Shown: positions 34,158 through 41,534 of the stretch, in pieces
How positions within the stretch are numbered: position 1 is the first letter of the stretch
How the letters are laid out: every line of letters starts with the position of its first letter
Source: Tortispora ganteri
Lineage: Eukaryota
Assembly (NCBI GenBank): GCA_003707115.1
Contig: PPNB01000004.1
Coordinates: forward strand, 310,001 to 374,000
Direction of reading: 5' to 3'
DNA length: 64,000 nucleotides
Notes under the pieces: generated by a model
Told to the model about the DNA's origin: nothing
Databases searched by the model: none
Seen by the model: the letters and a program-made list of their open reading frames with translations, nothing else
Program-made: the position numbers and the translations under genes

Positions 34158-35083
34158 TTAGATATTCTGATTAAGTGACTGGCGGTTATCATTTCGTCTA
34201 GGGCCACCTCTGTTTCCTCTACCTCTATAATTACCCCGGCCTCTGCCTCTGTGGCCACCCCGGTTATATTTATTATTCTTAAAGCCAGATTCACCAAATG
34301 TTTCCATGTTTAGTTCTCTTTCTTGATTTCTAGCCATCTTATCTTCACTAGTGGAAGTATTGTCGAAGAAGCTCGACGACTTATTATAAACAGGGGCTAT
34401 TGAGTTATCGGTAATAGAACCCTTTTCTTCTTCGAATTTGGCATTGTGCGATTGAAAATCAAATTCGCCAGTAGTCTTAGTAGATTTTGGCTGTTTTACT
34501 GGCTTCGAACGGTTTTTTGGTTCTTCTTTCGGTTGTTCTTTAGGCTGTGTGGGTTGCGCCGGCTCAGCGGTCTATAAAATTAGTTAGTGGTCTGATCAAT
34601 GTAGATTAGAGCAAACAATTTATTGTTTTCAGAAGGAAGGCAACGGGAAATCCGCATGGTTTTGCGCAACTTAGATATTTAAATAAAAACATCCGTCAAA
34701 TTTTCATCATTAAAACAACAATTGTGATTGTGATTGTGATAGATAGATAGATACTTACCTGCAGAATAGCAGGATCTCGAAAAGGCTGCTCTGGTTCACT
34801 GATAATCTTTAAGTCCTTTACATCAGACCCTCTAAATACTATGTATTCGTATACTTTGTCTGATGGAGGAATTTCTTTAGCAGGATTCTCTGCTCGTCCT
34901 TCCGTTCCATATGATTTCACATTTCCTAACGATACTGTACCGTTGTTTGAGTCCACGTCATTGAGTACTCCAACGTACCTGGATTCGGTTAATCTTCTGT
35001 CAATTTCATTTACTCAGTAAATTCACTTACCTAATATTACTACACGACGTTAAGGCGATTTTTCGTCCAATAAAATCCGCCAT
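34158..35083 (-). CDS. SCD6: Scd6/Lsm14 decapping activator, 228 aa; exons 35083-35031, 34978-34759, 34571-34158
   Basis: The spliced product reads MADFIGRKIALTSCSNIRYVGVL...VKSYGTEGR...YEYIVFRGSDVKDL (Lsm14 domain), then FDF, FFD and TFG motifs and an RGG tail. Both introns are GTAAGT...AG with branch points. Confidence 0.95.
34623..34718 (-). ncRNA. Intronic box C/D snoRNA, predicted guide for 18S rRNA Am420 (snR52-like)
   Basis: Box C ATGATGA (34710-34704), box D CTGA (34632-34629) and a terminal stem TTGTTT/AAACAA. The D guide GTTGCCTTCCTT is complementary to conserved 18S AAGGAAGGCAGC, recalled from S. cerevisiae. Confidence 0.88.
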
Positions 35084-35326: not shown

Positions 35327-38300
35327 TCACGACGACCGGTGCGTTTTACAAATCCCAGATATAACTCGCCGCACACTAGCATATACTTCAGGCCCCAGTC
35401 CTCGGCTTTGAGCTGCCTCTTCAACTTTCTTCTCTACGACTCCCAGTACTTGCAAAACCATGTCCTGGATTGTGGGATCATTGGCTTCAATCCTGCGTAA
35501 CGCACAATCAAGCCATTCAACTCTGACATGGAACTGACTGTTCTCCGAAAAGGATCCCAGCCCAGCAACAACTGCAAGCAACAGCAGCTGGTTATCGGTA
35601 GTAAGTACATATCCCGGACGATACGCCGATAGTACAGAAAACAACACCTCCTGCTGATCTCGAGGTGCTTCTATCCACGCAGAAAGTGCCTCGTCATTCT
35701 CACCTTTGCGAAGAAGTCCGTCTACTCTAATTACATTATCTGCAAGCACCGAGCTAGCCTCTTTCTTAATTTCTGCAGCGGTAGCAGCAGGAGAAGAAGG
35801 AGAATGAGGAGCCGGAGCAGAGACAAGTGCGGTAGCGACATTGGGTGCAACACCCGCTGAAGGGGCCTGCATCGGCTCGTCGTATCCTCGAACATTCTGT
35901 GCAACAGGCACAGGCACAGACACAGGCCCAGACCCAGGCCCAGGCCCAGCACCAGAAAGAAGAGGCACATTGTAAGACACATTCTGTCCTTGGTGCTGCA
36001 CTGGCAGAGCGGGAGCGTTGGAGTGGTAGATATCCTGACCGTTATATCCATAACCCTGACTAGACTGTCGCTGACCAGAGCTGTAGGACTCTGGCAAGTT
36101 TCCGTTACCTGGAGTCTGATAACCACCTCCCATTCTCTGAGATGCAGTAAGGCTCTGTGCAGGGTAAGTACCAACGTATCCAGGCGTATGGGCCGTACCA
36201 GGAACTCCAGAAATAGGAGCACGCGTAGGGCCAGCAGGAGGTGAAGCTATTGACGGCCCAACAGCATGCGGACTTTGTCCCCAAGGACTGCTAGGTGGTG
36301 GAGTCCCAGAAAGAGGCTCATTACCATTCAAATTCGACAGTATACTCCTTGAATTAGGTAGAGAGGGTTGGCGCTGTCCTTCAGTTGATCCAGGTACAGA
36401 TGCAGACGCAGATCCCATTTCAGCAGTGACACCACGAGCTCGGTTGTCAGCCCAAAAATTCGACGGAGCTCCAGAATAAGGCTGATTCGTTCCGTTAACA
36501 GATAAGCGAGACACCGTGTCAGTGAGCTGAGAAATTAGAGTCTTGAGCTCATCAATATCGCGATCTCGCCTTGCAATTTCTCCTTTAAGTTCTTGTATCA
36601 GACTTCTAGTTTCTGAAGAGTAATCCTTCAGCATTAAGTTAATGGAATCAACACTTTTGGATACACGATTCAGCTCAGCGCCTCGTAATTTCGATATCTC
36701 AGCGGGAACCACCTCTCGAATATTCGAAATACCAGTTTGTATAGACTCCATAGATGGTTTTACCATTTCTCCCATTACAGCATGAACAGATCCATGAACC
36801 AATTTTGCAATGCTCGGGAGCAGTACTTGCTTGACTTCTTTCCCTAATGAGCTTCGGATAATCTTAGAGAGCTCATCAGAATTGGAAACACTAGAATCAT
36901 TGGAAAGAACAGACGATGGCATTTGGGTTTTCATTTCAGATGACTTGACTTGCAGTAAAGAAGCATGAGTCGAGACCGAAGCAGGAGAAGATATATCAGT
37001 GCTTGCTGAGTGTAAACCATTTTGCTCATCAGCTTTAGTAGTAACAGACGAACTAGAGGCAGCTGACCTGTGCAAATTAATCGAGGAGTCATAAGTAGAA
37101 GGTAGGCTGTCAACCGAAATATCCTTGTCAACTTTACCAACTTGTCCTCCCCCAAGTAGTTTCTGAGATACCGGAAGAATCCTGACTTCGGCATTATCAG
37201 CAATGAACAAATCAAAAAGCGAGTAAGCGTCAGAAGTTATTCTGGATGAACACATGCTGATTATTTTGGCATCAGAGACGTATTGTAATTCAGTTATCTT
37301 GTCAAATCGCGAATGCTTCTCAGGGCGGCCTGGGGATGCCCTTTCAATATACTGCGCTTGAGTAAATCTTACTTTGGCAGACTCATCCTCATTAGAATCC
37401 TCACCGAGAACTAAAAATATCAAAGAGTTGCGTACTTTGTTCACCACCACAGCTATGCGATTCGCAGAGCTTACAACAAGAGGGGATAAAAATTCAGAAA
37501 GAGGGGTAGCAATTTCAGAAACCTCAGGAAGAGCTACTTCTTGGACGAGACTAAGAGATCCAAGGTGATAAAGCTGTAAAACCGAATTATTGGCAAAGCC
37601 AGCTAAAATACATCTAGCAGGAAAGGCAGGGTCAGGCTGATCAAAGAATTGCACAGAAGATGGAGGATAAGAGGCCTTTGAGGCCAAAGAGGCAATAGCG
37701 TTAGTTAGAGGTTTTTTAGCTGAGGATGAGCGAAAATCAGAAGATGACCACACTTCAATAGTGCCAGCAGAATTAATAGTAACGACAGCCGAACCATCTG
37801 AGGAGATATCAAAGTCAACAATAGGGTTTGCAGACCGGCAGACGTAACTGCTGTAGGATAGACCCGAAGGAGTACGCTCGATCTGTATAGGGTCTTTAGT
37901 GTCTTCTAAAGTGTCCAAATTATAAACATACAGAATATCTTCAACCGATACTACCAATAAGCCCAGGTTTCCAAGCTTAGCGAGAGTTTTAGCGTTAGGA
38001 TCGGGCATTATACGTAGTATCTGACGAAAATCAGGGCTAGTGAGCACGCCGTCATCTGATTCATTTTTATCAGGAACAGGAATTACGTGCCAAAAAATAA
38101 CTTCGTTATCAGCAGTTGTTGATACCAATCTTGAAGGAGGGGGTGTCATAATTGACTCGGTAGTCGATTGGTCGTCTTCGTCAAAGTCGTCATCTGAATC
38201 GATCATAGACAAGTTCACTATAGGCGATTTTGAGTGGCCTTTAAGAGCGACGTTGGCAACATTGTCGAGTTCTATTACTCTGATGTCTCCAGGCTTGGAG

Positions 38301-38602
38301 AGCGAATATGAGAGATATCTGTCATTCACTGCGATTACATTGCGAGCTCCGGCGATGGGCGTCCTTTTCAGGCGAGAGACGCTTTCCAGGTCAGACACGT
38401 TCAGGCTACCGTCAAAAAGCCGATCTGCATGAATTGTAACTTTTTCGGAAGCACTTGATGCCTTTGAGGGAATTGAACGAGTTTGAATACCAGAAGTGGC
38501 CAAAATGGCCGGGTCCATAGGCTTGTCGACAACCGGGGATTCTGATGCATCCCGACTAGGCGTACCTTTGTTAAGGAGCGCTAATAGTCCTGAAGCATCC
38601 AT
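35327..38602 (-). CDS. EDC4/Ge-1/Pdc1-like mRNA decapping scaffold
   Basis: N-terminal beta-propeller-like region (IAVNDRYLSYSL...IRVI; DFDISSDGSAVVT), a Ser-rich linker and a coiled coil. The C-terminal domain LLLLAVV...VEWLDCALRRIEANDPTIQD resembles the EDC4 C-terminus. The likely ATG is at 38602. Confidence 0.7.
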   Translation of the reverse strand: MDASGLLALLNKGTPSRDASESPVVDKPMDPAILATSGIQTRSIPSKASSASEKVTIHADRLFDGSLNVSDLESVSRLKRTPIAGARNVIAVNDRYLSYSLSKPGDIRVIELDNVANVALKGHSKSPIVNLSMIDSDDDFDEDDQSTTESIMTPPPSRLVSTTADNEVIFWHVIPVPDKNESDDGVLTSPDFRQILRIMPDPNAKTLAKLGNLGLLVVSVEDILYVYNLDTLEDTKDPIQIERTPSGLSYSSYVCRSANPIVDFDISSDGSAVVTINSAGTIEVWSSSDFRSSSAKKPLTNAIASLASKASYPPSSVQFFDQPDPAFPARCILAGFANNSVLQLYHLGSLSLVQEVALPEVSEIATPLSEFLSPLVVSSANRIAVVVNKVRNSLIFLVLGEDSNEDESAKVRFTQAQYIERASPGRPEKHSRFDKITELQYVSDAKIISMCSSRITSDAYSLFDLFIADNAEVRILPVSQKLLGGGQVGKVDKDISVDSLPSTYDSSINLHRSAASSSSVTTKADEQNGLHSASTDISSPASVSTHASLLQVKSSEMKTQMPSSVLSNDSSVSNSDELSKIIRSSLGKEVKQVLLPSIAKLVHGSVHAVMGEMVKPSMESIQTGISNIREVVPAEISKLRGAELNRVSKSVDSINLMLKDYSSETRSLIQELKGEIARRDRDIDELKTLISQLTDTVSRLSVNGTNQPYSGAPSNFWADNRARGVTAEMGSASASVPGSTEGQRQPSLPNSRSILSNLNGNEPLSGTPPPSSPWGQSPHAVGPSIASPPAGPTRAPISGVPGTAHTPGYVGTYPAQSLTASQRMGGGYQTPGNGNLPESYSSGQRQSSQGYGYNGQDIYHSNAPALPVQHQGQNVSYNVPLLSGAGPGPGSGPVSVPVPVAQNVRGYDEPMQAPSAGVAPNVATALVSAPAPHSPSSPAATAAEIKKEASSVLADNVIRVDGLLRKGENDEALSAWIEAPRDQQEVLFSVLSAYRPGYVLTTDNQLLLLAVVAGLGSFSENSQFHVRVEWLDCALRRIEANDPTIQDMVLQVLGVVEKKVEEAAQSRGLGPEVYASVRRVISGICKTHRSS
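35905..35950. repeat. Imperfect hexanucleotide coding repeat (CAGGCA/CAGGCC), encoding GAGPGPGSGPVSVPVPV
   Basis: The plus strand reads acaggcacaggcacagacacaggcccagacccaggcccaggcccagc. Confidence 0.7.
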
Positions 38603-39245: not shown

Positions 39246-41534
39246 TCAATAATCTATGAGCTTCAACTTGCGTCCAATGTTCTTAGCCCTGTACTTTGCT
39301 GCTCCACTTCGCGGTGTAGTCGCACCCGACGGAGGCCTTGACCTTTCTGATTCGTGCGAACCATTGGTTATCGGTCCTAATCCTACACCCATGGCGGTAC
39401 TCATACTAGATGGTGTGCCATTCACTGGAGCCTTTGAAAACTCTTTCAGTAAGGCTTCCATTTCGCCCATATCAAAGTATCCGTAACCACCCATCACGTC
39501 ACCTGCTTCATCCTCTTCCTCTTCTTCGACAACTGCGGTAGTTTTAAGCTTGCGTCCAAGACGATCATCGGATACTTCACTGTTCAGGCCTGAAATAGAT
39601 GCCGCTTTAGCTCTAGAATTCTGTCTAAGAATATTGCGCATCTCAAGCAAATAGTTCTGTAACGTTTCAAGGAAACGTTTAGTTTGCCTATGTTTGGACG
39701 AAGCACAAATCGAAATCGAATTATTGGTCAAGATATAGCCAATTCCGAACCCATCAGGTGATGTTGGACCAAATCCAAACAGACGCAAAGAAGGGTTACC
39801 GCAATTCGAAGTCGACAAGATAGTATTGCCTAACTTATCCCATCCTTGATCTGCAAATATTGCAGGAAGCGGAGGCACGCTACCAGATGCCGCGCTATCT
39901 GTATCCCAACTAGATGAACCTTTATCGTCATCCAAAAACTCTCTCTGCCACATGCAAAGCAGTGCATACAAGTGCCTATCTTGACCAAGTCCTTGCGAGC
40001 ATTGCTTTGTTAGCTGTGAATGTCTATCGCATGCTCGTCTGAGCGATTCAATTTTGTCGATAGCTGGCGCGTCTTCACAAAATTTTCTTACAAATGCTAA
40101 ACATTCATCCGTTACCGTTCTTATAGCTTCTGTACGACCATGAAGGAAGTACTTGGTCATGGCTGGCTCGTAAGTGGACTCGCACCGTCCATACAGAGCG
40201 TAATAGGCGGCTTGGAAAGCCAACTGAACATATGCATCCGGAGAAAATCCTGAATTCTTTATAAAGTTTGTTCCATAAGCTTTGAATTCCAGAGTTTCAA
40301 CCTCCGTCTGATGGATGAGATCGGACAATCTGGACTCTGCAAAACGGAGAGCAATGGACAACTCAGGGACCAAAGTCCACTCTAACCTTCGGGGTACGAT
40401 TGAGATAAATGGTTTTGAGTTTCTCAAAGACACCGGGTCAGGACTTTGTGAAGGCCAGATTGACGGAGAAGAGCCAGTAATACTTTTAGCATATCTCAAG
40501 ATTGAATCTGTAAAGATATCTGAAACAAACCTCAGCACAGTGTGGCCGTCTACACCGGTGTGCTCAAAATTAACACCTGCTGATCCATTTTTGGTGACAA
40601 TGATCTGTAGTTTATCGTACCAGCGGTTAGTACATGATCCAACCTGAATGCCTTTTTCAACCGATGAGGTTCCGCATAAAATATTACGACTCAAATCTGC
40701 CAAGGTTTCGGGGCTGACATGATCTAAGCATAGCATAAATAGAGCGCTGTCAATGATACTGAGAATTTCTCTATTATTGGCATCATCACCATTAGCCAAA
40801 ACCTCTCTCAGATTAGCCCAGTCCCTGCGGTTCTCGGTAGTCAGTACACCGACAGCTCGTTTAGCAGCTTCTGTAATAGATATATCTTGTGCATCTGAAA
40901 CAATTGTTTCAAGATTTCTGCTCAGTTCAGCTTCCGAGATGATAATGTCACTGTTTTCATCGAGAACGTCGAACCAATAGAATTGCGAACGAGCCACCAC
41001 CACAATGTGGCGCGATGTAGTATCAGTTTGCATAATGCAGCAATCCTGGTTAGGAATGCGAGAGGTACCAAATAGTCGAGTATATTGATACATACACAAA
41101 GGCTTTCCACGAACGTTATCGTAGGGAAGTTCTTCGCGGCGAAGGGCGCGGATGAAGTTAAGCGAGGATATCACTAGCGATGCTGCACGATTTACCTGAG
41201 AGCCCGAAGCAGAAGGGCTAGGATCTTCCTCCAAAAGAAAAAATGGATTTAAGTTCAAAACCACAGGATTGTCGTAGTTTAGGTAAGAATCGTACCAGAA
41301 CTGTTCGATATACGAGCTGCGGTCCTTTGAGTACTCCTTTAGCATATTATTTAGTCTAGGACCTTCGTTTGCAAGGAATTCTGCTGTAGCAGCCTTAGTG
41401 CGTTGATGTTCAGCATAAGTCTGAAGAGGACGAACGGCATCCAGGTATTTCTTGCAAGTTTCCTCTAGATCAGGAATAGGCAGCTTAGATAGCAAATGTT
41501 GCTTGGAGAAAGTGACGGAACCGTTTACTGTCAT
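39246..41534 (-). CDS. YAT1: Carnitine O-acetyltransferase, Yat1-like
   Basis: KLPIPDLEETC, SYIEQFW, VVLNLNPFFLLE, NRWYDKLQ, catalytic FEHTGVDGHTVLR, SPDAYVQ and STSNCGNP. The first ATG is at 41534. Confidence 0.92.
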   Translation of the reverse strand: MTVNGSVTFSKQHLLSKLPIPDLEETCKKYLDAVRPLQTYAEHQRTKAATAEFLANEGPRLNNMLKEYSKDRSSYIEQFWYDSYLNYDNPVVLNLNPFFLLEEDPSPSASGSQVNRAASLVISSLNFIRALRREELPYDNVRGKPLCMYQYTRLFGTSRIPNQDCCIMQTDTTSRHIVVVARSQFYWFDVLDENSDIIISEAELSRNLETIVSDAQDISITEAAKRAVGVLTTENRRDWANLREVLANGDDANNREILSIIDSALFMLCLDHVSPETLADLSRNILCGTSSVEKGIQVGSCTNRWYDKLQIIVTKNGSAGVNFEHTGVDGHTVLRFVSDIFTDSILRYAKSITGSSPSIWPSQSPDPVSLRNSKPFISIVPRRLEWTLVPELSIALRFAESRLSDLIHQTEVETLEFKAYGTNFIKNSGFSPDAYVQLAFQAAYYALYGRCESTYEPAMTKYFLHGRTEAIRTVTDECLAFVRKFCEDAPAIDKIESLRRACDRHSQLTKQCSQGLGQDRHLYALLCMWQREFLDDDKGSSSWDTDSAASGSVPPLPAIFADQGWDKLGNTILSTSNCGNPSLRLFGFGPTSPDGFGIGYILTNNSISICASSKHRQTKRFLETLQNYLLEMRNILRQNSRAKAASISGLNSEVSDDRLGRKLKTTAVVEEEEEDEAGDVMGGYGYFDMGEMEALLKEFSKAPVNGTPSSMSTAMGVGLGPITNGSHESERSRPPSGATTPRSGAAKYRAKNIGRKLKLIDY

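Follow-up and report, generated by a model that had tools for sequence, protein, structure and literature searches.

A predicted snR52-family box C/D snoRNA in the second intron of the SCD6 gene of the budding yeast Tortispora ganteri

A 64-kb stretch of the Tortispora ganteri genome (referred to here as the window) contains a predicted box C/D snoRNA of the snR52 family within the second intron of SCD6, and both its anatomy and its family assignment support this prediction with high confidence. Our reading of the locus is that it represents the snR52 orthologue of a Tortispora budding yeast, located in the SCD6 intron just after the LSm exon, and we give this reading a probability of roughly 0.88. 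By its family assignment, the snoRNA is a further member of a known family for which intronic orthologues have already been published, and SCD6 is not named as the host in the searchable papers. Judged from comparison with homologous loci, the arrangement is common among fungi and is not peculiar to the T. ganteri genome.

The identity of the RNA is based on a covariance-model search of the whole window against 4227 Rfam families, for which the E-value was computed. At gathering thresholds, the sole match in the 64-kb window was to RF00335 (snoZ13_snr52), located on the minus strand at 34719–34623, with a score of 61.4 bits as compared to a gathering threshold of 47 and an E-value of 1.5e-9. 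The match covers model positions 1–101 of 101 and is not truncated. An earlier interpretation of this DNA, made from the letters of the window only (the sequence-only reading), had proposed that a snR52-like box C/D snoRNA is hidden in intron 2, with the snR52 family in Rfam as a check, and the full-length match above gathering bears this out. The 16-mer that combines the guide with box D has one occurrence, with 0.06 expected at two or fewer mismatches.

The coordinates of the snoRNA elements and of the host gene are collected in Table 1. The ATGATGA and CTGA boxes and the 6-bp closing stem were found where the sequence-only reading had placed them, and its estimate that the snoRNA ends about 40 nt upstream of the branch point is matched by a distance of 39 nt between the 3′ end of the stem and A34584. 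The distance from the 5′ splice site to the start of the snoRNA is likewise 39 nt. The RNA lies wholly inside a spliceosomal intron, on the sense strand, and at workable distances from the splice signals, which are the features looked for in an intron-encoded snoRNA. The predicted MFE and centroid folds both lengthen the terminal stem from 6 bp to about 14 bp with one bulge, extending it outward through CAATTG... on one side and ...AAATTG on the other. As compared to shuffled sequences, the snoRNA is not more stable (z −0.72). Fold stability near the level of shuffles is usual for box C/D RNAs.

Table 1. Elements of the predicted snoRNA and of its SCD6 host gene, in window positions.
Feature	Position	Strand	Remarks
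Box C/D snoRNA, snR52/Z13 family	34623..34719	-	about 96 nt; RF00335 match
Terminal stem, 5′ half, TTGTTT	34713..34718	-	pairs with AAACAA 34628-34623
Box C, ATGATGA	34704..34710	-	TGATGA invariant in 22/22 aligned homologues
GGATGT element	34689..34694	-	internal-stem partner or accessory pairing to 18S ACATCC
D′-like box, CTAA, degenerate	34671..34674	-	homologues: CCGA, CTGA or CTAA
C′-like box, TGCGGA, degenerate	34651..34656	-	homologues: TGTGGA, TGTTGA or TGCGGA; TG..GA columns invariant
D guide, GTTGCCTTCCTT	34633..34644	-	fifth base before box D is T34637
Box D, CTGA	34629..34632	-	
Terminal stem, 3′ half, AAACAA	34623..34628	-	
SCD6 exon 1	35031..35083	-	53 nt; ATG opens the frame; AG at end, then GTAAGT
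SCD6 intron 1	34979..35030	-	52 nt; GTAAGT ... GATTAAC ... CAG
SCD6 exon 2	34759..34978	-	LSm (Scd6-like Sm) domain; PF12701
SCD6 intron 2, snoRNA host	34572..34758	-	187 nt; 5′ splice site GTAAGT; branch ACTAAC; 3′ TAG
Intron 2 branch motif, ACTAAC	34588-34583	-	branch A 34584; 12 nt before terminal TAG
Intron 2 3′ splice site, TAG	34574-34572	-	
SCD6 exon 3	34161..34571	-	FDF-like, FFD, TFG and RGG motifs; stop TAA 34163-34161

The host is a three-exon SCD6/LSM14 gene on the minus strand, which spans window positions 34161–35083. Joining the three exons produces a 684 nt open frame that encodes 227 amino acids followed by a stop codon, and the excision of intron 1 fuses ...SNIR to YVGVLND..., the start of the LSm domain. 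Exon 2 on its own matches the Pfam LSM14 family (PF12701) with an E-value of 3.3e-23 and a score of 82 bits. The database homologues of this exon carry the names Scd6p, Sum2, and LSM14, and no Tortispora Scd6 was among the matches listed. Inspection of the exon 3 translation by eye revealed EFDF, SFFD, TFG, and RG-rich stretches; no Pfam family, the FDF model included, was assigned to it at E ≤0.01, and a search for protein homologues of near length returned nothing at E ≤1e-5. The layout of Scd6, Sum2, and LSM14 proteins, consisting of an N-terminal Scd6-like Sm domain, then FDF/FFD/TFG motifs and an RGG tail, is present in the host gene. Based on the LSM14 match of exon 2, the named homologues, and the exon 3 motifs, we assign the host gene as the SCD6 orthologue. 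The claim that a 187-nt intron of SCD6 occupies this position is upheld by its canonical splice signals, the open spliced frame, and the LSM14 match. A regular-expression scan for splice motifs over the 64-kb window was very noisy, producing 20 overlapping intron candidates, many of which fall within long ORFs. The ORF neighbouring SCD6 belongs to the tubulin cofactor D family.

The guide of the snoRNA is complementary to 18S rRNA. When judged against a published universal 18S primer, the 12 nt of GTTGCCTTCCTT form 11 Watson-Crick pairs and one G-U pair with AAGGAAGGCAGC, which reproduces the pairing with 18S that the sequence-only reading had proposed. Stated differently, the plus strand at 34633–34644 reads AAGGAAGGCAGC except for a single mismatch, which is the G-U position. 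The fifth guide base, T34637, is opposite an A, which we take to be the residue known as Am420 in S. cerevisiae numbering. The primer concerned is the universal eukaryote 18S primer EUK345F, which contains AAGGAAGGCAGC according to the accessible part of PMC11609201. The sequence-only reading had also held that the D+5 rule points to A420 of 18S; for the Neurospora crassa orthologue CD42, the available text of PMC2780460 gives 18S-Am417 as the site of the D guide. The 12-mer target is not significant by itself, as at least one match with one mismatch or fewer was found in 29 of 100 shuffles. All 12 nt of the guide agree with the consensus of the family, and its assignment as the family's 18S guide is supported.

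Homologous RNAs were sought in metagenome sequences, the query being the 16-mer that covers the guide and box D, in which one base was degenerate. The scan returned at least 118 loci, from which 40 with a box C or family-like upstream sequence were picked by eye and given to Rfam. Among the matches listed, RF00335 was found in 25 of these 40 loci, with scores of 47.6–95.3 bits. The 25 loci account for 26 listed matches because one of them, L070, carries two tandem copies. The animal U83B family, RF00593, was assigned to two loci among the matches listed (L026 and L056), where the guide is fully Watson-Crick (GCTGCC...). We also built our own model from 22 RNAs, the window copy included, and searched the remaining 93 loci listed with it. 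This provided one further fungal-type copy (L015), which is 5′-truncated. Using the same model, L010, L003, L050, L042, L101, L104, and L082 scored 27–44 bits; these are divergent box C/D RNAs that have the same guide and fall short of RF00335. Since the guide sequence served to retrieve the loci, its conservation among them follows from how they were selected. Outside of the search pattern, box C, CGGATG, GCGCA, and the TG..GA C′-like box are conserved across homologues. The score of the window copy, 61 bits, is lower than that of most Pezizomycotina-like loci (78–95 bits).

The genomic context of these RNAs was analyzed by tblastn with the peptides of window exons 2 and 3, which located the Scd6 LSm exon immediately before the snoRNA, in the same orientation, in 18 of the 25 loci listed. 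L019, which is cut at the 5′ end of the snoRNA, retains an exon-3-like part downstream only, and six of the 25 loci listed lack a tblastn match to either window exon. When pairs that are at least 99% identical (L041/L099 and L040/L093) are merged, the SCD6 context is found in 17 of the 23 loci listed. For the better loci, exons downstream of the snoRNA matched exon 3 in tblastn with E-values from 4e-5 to 3e-7. Pfam analysis of same-strand ORF pieces in the six loci lacking a tblastn match detected a weak LSM14 match about 340 nt upstream of the snoRNA in L018 (E 4e-4, below the cut-off) and was empty for L109 and L113, both of which are short. Other surroundings were found as well: the snoRNA of L011 is flanked by pieces of a DUF2408 gene, that of L021 is found some 460 nt downstream of an eRF1 ORF, and the tandem copies of L070 follow a Rot1 ORF.

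The position of the intron is conserved to the codon. The donor comes one codon after DPAIL, DPAIM, or DPAVL at 14 of the 15 placeable loci listed and two codons after it in the remaining one (L062). The window has DPAILQ and then GTAAGT, in phase 0. The spacing between the donor and the snoRNA is 28–62 nt in the 15 loci listed, a range that includes the 39 nt of the window, and the homologous introns among the loci listed measure about 160–230 nt by a rough heuristic. The closest named Scd6 proteins, among the matches listed, are from Sordariomycetes, Leotiomycetes, Lecanoromycetes, and Dothideomycetes, at 50–72% identity. The fungal class of each locus is a rough guess from 40–72% identity to named Scd6 proteins, with L037, L041, L040, and L052 being unplaceable. 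No LSM14 exon was found near the non-fungal copies among the loci listed. The comparison of SCD6 introns in relatives, which had been suggested as a check, places the snoRNA in the same intron at 18–19 of the 25 loci listed, and by this comparison the SCD6 intron is the commonest snR52 context among the fungal loci listed.

In addition to the D guide, the snoRNA was analyzed for a second guide. The stretch before the D′-like box is AT-only in the window, and neither its sequence nor its length is conserved in the 22 aligned homologues. The earlier statement that a guide for 25S Um2921 is not seen agrees with this stretch and with CD42, for which an 18S target only is given. Judged by sequence conservation, no second guide is visible in the snoRNA.

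A different element, GGATGT, is conserved, with the CGGAT(G)T columns of the homologue alignment at 90% or above. GGATGT is complementary to ACATCC, and the 18S primer CGGCTACCACATCCAAGGAA, as printed in the accessible part of PMC10294656, has ACATCC directly 5′ of AAGGAA and of the guide target. GGAUGU may take part in additional, so far unreported pairing with 18S, at the bases immediately before the site targeted for methylation. Such a pairing would resemble the 'extra base-pairing' described by van Nues et al. 2011 (PMC3116282), the available main text of which does not mention snR52. The rival account is that the element belongs to an internal stem, as both Rfam and RNAalifold pair CGGA with UCCG. 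The outer pair of this stem is replaced by a compensatory U..A in L035 and is broken, as U..U, in L046. The element may have either one function or the other.

The expression mode of the window snoRNA was evaluated from its flanks and its body. A scan with A- and B-box consensus sequences found no Pol III A/B-box leader upstream of the snoRNA, and no A box. A single B-box-like 9-mer was rejected as a promoter, as it is located downstream of the snoRNA, in exon 3. The snoRNA has an internal T5 run, which fits poorly with Pol III transcription given the rule by which Pol III terminates. Based on the T5 run, Pol II appears to fit better than Pol III as the polymerase for the window snoRNA.

Several known systems can be compared to the window copy. 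The N. crassa RNA CD42 is given in the available text of Liu et al. 2009 (PMC2780460) as a 92 nt homologue of snR52/U83, with a single D guide, 12/0 pairing, 18S-Am417 as the target, and 'Intron' as the genomic location. CD42 and the window copy are alike in RNA type, guide, intronic mode, and the apparent lack of a second target; they differ in subphylum, and the host gene of CD42 is unnamed in the main text as available. The snR52 RNA of S. cerevisiae shares the RF00335 family with the window copy. It targets one small-subunit rRNA residue (PMC11121408) and also guides 25S Um2921, for which Spb1 acts as a back-up (PMC11121408, PMC9045821), according to the accessible parts of these papers. 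The available text of PMC10557570 describes SNR52 as the only yeast snoRNA made by Pol III, and that of PMC2566860 places its A- and B-box upstream of the mature RNA; the two sources agree with the statement of the sequence-only reading that S. cerevisiae snR52 is an independent Pol III transcript. The window copy is distinguished from S. cerevisiae SNR52, a Pol III gene for a double guide, by being intronic, by having no upstream leader, and by showing no conserved second guide. The SCD6 gene of S. cerevisiae is not known to have an intron.

Pol III genes for snR52 are found in further budding yeasts. The Candida albicans snR52 is occupied in ChIP-chip data by Rpc82, a Pol III subunit (available part of PMC2926782), and is therefore an independent Pol III gene that is non-intronic. 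It is a budding-yeast orthologue like the window copy, from which it differs as a Pol III gene. Native SNR52 Pol III promoters are in use in Scheffersomyces stipitis and Kluyveromyces lactis, as reported in the accessible text of PMC6444819. Outside of the fungi, human U83 is equated with snR52 in the N. crassa table (PMC2780460, as available), and plant Z13 is grouped with snR52 by Rfam. Human SNORD83A/B and plant Z13 differ from the window copy in belonging to other Rfam families or host genes. Human SNORD83 presumably sits in introns of RPL3.

Tortispora is a member of the Trigonopsidales, within the Saccharomycotina. The Trigonopsidales are an early branch among the budding yeasts. The sequence-only reading had interpreted the intronic guide as a switch of expression mode in this organism. 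This part of the claim does not stand, as the intronic CD42 has already been published (PMC2780460, as available) and an SCD6 intron hosts the snoRNA at 18–19 of the 25 loci listed. On the same two grounds, the T. ganteri state is widespread and probably ancestral. The window copy most likely represents the ancestral intronic state surviving in an early-branching budding yeast, and the complementary view, that Pol III expression in the S. cerevisiae/C. albicans lineage is the derived state, is supported. A broader proposal is that the post-LSm intron of SCD6 was the ancestral home of snR52 in the Ascomycota, unchanged in codon position over several hundred million years, kept by Tortispora (Trigonopsidales), and given up for Pol III expression in C. 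albicans and S. cerevisiae; we put the odds of this at about even. If true, snR52 would have passed from a Pol II intron to Pol III within the budding yeasts, after the Trigonopsidales split, and the change would be datable through intermediate lineages. Yarrowia was left out when bracketing this switch, as the SNR52′ promoter part used in Y. lipolytica may or may not be native.

The evidence above also bears on three other explanations of the locus. It could be argued that the resemblance to snR52 is due to chance, in that box-like motifs and a 12-mer with complementarity to 18S rRNA arose by accident in a long AT-rich intron. The ease with which the 12-mer arises in shuffles at one mismatch or fewer (29/100) and the ordinary fold energy would be consistent with this, but a covariance-model E-value of 1.5e-9 over the whole window and homologous RNAs in the same intron of the same gene at 18–19 of the 25 independent loci listed would not, and chance resemblance is effectively refuted. 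A decaying, unused relic has more in its favor, the working snR52 then being a separate Pol III gene elsewhere in the genome. Pol III-type SNR52 genes exist in other budding yeasts (available parts of PMC10557570, PMC2926782, and PMC6444819), the window copy has one of the lower Rfam scores among the fungal loci, and a second copy is possible given that the comparison was confined to the 64-kb window. A neutral copy, however, would be expected to have lost some of its boxes, guide, stem, or intron length. Instead, boxes C and D are perfect, no guide base departs from the family consensus, the terminal stem remains intact, with an extension, and the intron has been kept at 187 nt in a compact gene whose other intron is 52 nt. 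We consider a relic improbable.

It is also improbable, and by a small degree more so than a relic, that the intron acts in cis on SCD6 in addition to encoding the snoRNA, for instance by coupling Scd6 output to snoRNP assembly or to splicing efficiency. Such a role would explain why the snoRNA and its host have been paired for so long, and the depth to which host, intron position, and spacing are conserved is the observation that supports it; the available part of a review (PMC11028025) covers cis roles of snoRNAs in their host loci. Yet copies are found outside SCD6 in L011, L021, and L070, S. cerevisiae manages without the arrangement, and the retention of an intron for the sake of a needed snoRNA is a sufficient explanation. 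Our preferred reading continues to be that the locus is the snR52 orthologue of this yeast, residing in the intron after the LSm exon of SCD6.

Given the observed anatomy, family, host gene, and intron structure, and the conservation of the snoRNA within SCD6 of other fungi, a route from transcription to methylation can be proposed for the window snoRNA. Its steps, which cover transcription, processing, snoRNP assembly, and methylation, follow the pathway known for intron-encoded box C/D snoRNAs. SCD6 would be transcribed by Pol II, and Snu13, Nop58, Nop56, and Nop1/fibrillarin would assemble on the kink-turn of boxes C and D, with the terminal stem holding it together. Intron 2 would be spliced out and then debranched, and exonuclease trimming would stop at a protected RNA of about 96 nt. 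In 18S rRNA, AAGGAAGGCAGC is predicted to pair with the 12 nt that precede box D, upon which Nop1 would methylate the A facing the fifth guide base at its ribose.

A literature search of main texts for SCD6, sum2, or LSM14 as a snoRNA host found no paper, and the host may already be named in supplementary tables or genome databases. As far as the searched main texts go, the earlier remark that SCD6 is unreported as a host gene stands. The immediate gain is one of annotation, as an unannotated yeast genome is provided with one snoRNA that it was expected to have. The snoRNA would also explain why a 187-nt SCD6 intron is kept in a compact, intron-poor yeast. The wider point rests on comparison, which indicates that the pairing of snR52 with an SCD6 intron is deeply conserved in fungi, an early-branching budding yeast included. 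The intronic and Pol III forms may offer a concrete view of the states before and after a rare event, in which a snoRNA exchanges its Pol II intron for a Pol III promoter. CRISPR work in yeasts makes wide use of the SNR52 promoter to drive guide RNAs. To know in which lineages a Pol III SNR52 is absent has a slight practical value for building such tools.

The remainder of the window was surveyed briefly. An exact look-up of 10 window ORFs in a protein collection gave no match, which fits an assembly that lacks annotation. Genes are closely packed in the window, which contains 23 ORFs of 250 aa or longer and has a G+C content of 39–45%. One of the ORFs encodes a carnitine acyltransferase that has 94% identity to a Tortispora caseinolytica protein, the next matches being from Lipomycetaceae at about 60%.

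The snR52-family box C/D snoRNA, hosted in Tortispora ganteri by intron 2 of the Scd6/LSM14 gene SCD6, was also found outside SCD6 in three of the metagenome loci that were retrieved with its guide and box D (L011, L021, and L070). The L011 copy closely resembles the RNA of L080, a locus in which SCD6 is the host. These copies suggest that the snoRNA has occasionally been relocated or duplicated in some fungi. The same guide to 18S also occurs in a divergent RNA at three loci of non-fungal type, where this RNA is clustered beside SNORD36- and SNORD61-type snoRNAs, which is a different genomic organization for this guide.

Features in the window (no locus handle) and in metagenome loci (L-numbers)
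Feature	Locus	Position	Strand	Context or basis
Alignment, LSm exon through intron	L040	1763-2017		public protein alignment
Same	L095	3-317		same
Same	L081	63-317		same
Same	L099	31-327		same
snR52-family copy	L011	1993-2096	minus	flanked by DUF2408 ORF pieces
snR52-family copy	L021	1925-2022		downstream of eRF1 ORF
snR52-family copies, tandem	L070	738-847 and 986-1098	minus	downstream of Rot1 ORF
Region with divergent RNA, same 18S guide, in snoRNA cluster	L050	408-855
Same	L101	133-393
Same	L104	283-394
Tandem-repeat stretch, 5' part of SCD6 intron 2		about 34721-34753	minus	read from sequence
EDC4-like Pdc1 beta-propeller gene		35330-38602	minus	Pfam match, E 1.3e-10
Carnitine acyltransferase ORF		39249-41534	minus	94% identity to Tortispora caseinolytica protein

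Five short public predicted proteins (P0153, P0239, P0194, P0177, and P0150; 131-204 aa) align continuously from the LSm exon across the snoRNA-bearing intron, as if these gene models had left the intron unspliced and translated the snoRNA. No Tortispora Scd6 was among the protein homologs listed for the exon 2 peptide, and the exon 3 peptide gave no match at all among proteins of near length at E up to 1e-5. The sister species T. caseinolytica is represented by a protein 94% identical to the carnitine acyltransferase of the window; its gene model for SCD6 may be absent or wrongly split at these introns.

Within SCD6 intron 2, ∼40 nt separate the 5' splice site from the snoRNA, and nearly all of them belong to a pair of short tandem repeats: ATCT in about four copies, then CACAAT in three. 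Judged from its sequence, this stretch looks like a spacer that is free to vary. Directly upstream of SCD6, and on the same strand, lies the gene with the EDC4-like Pdc1 beta-propeller match; thus, two genes of the mRNA-decapping pathway stand in tandem.
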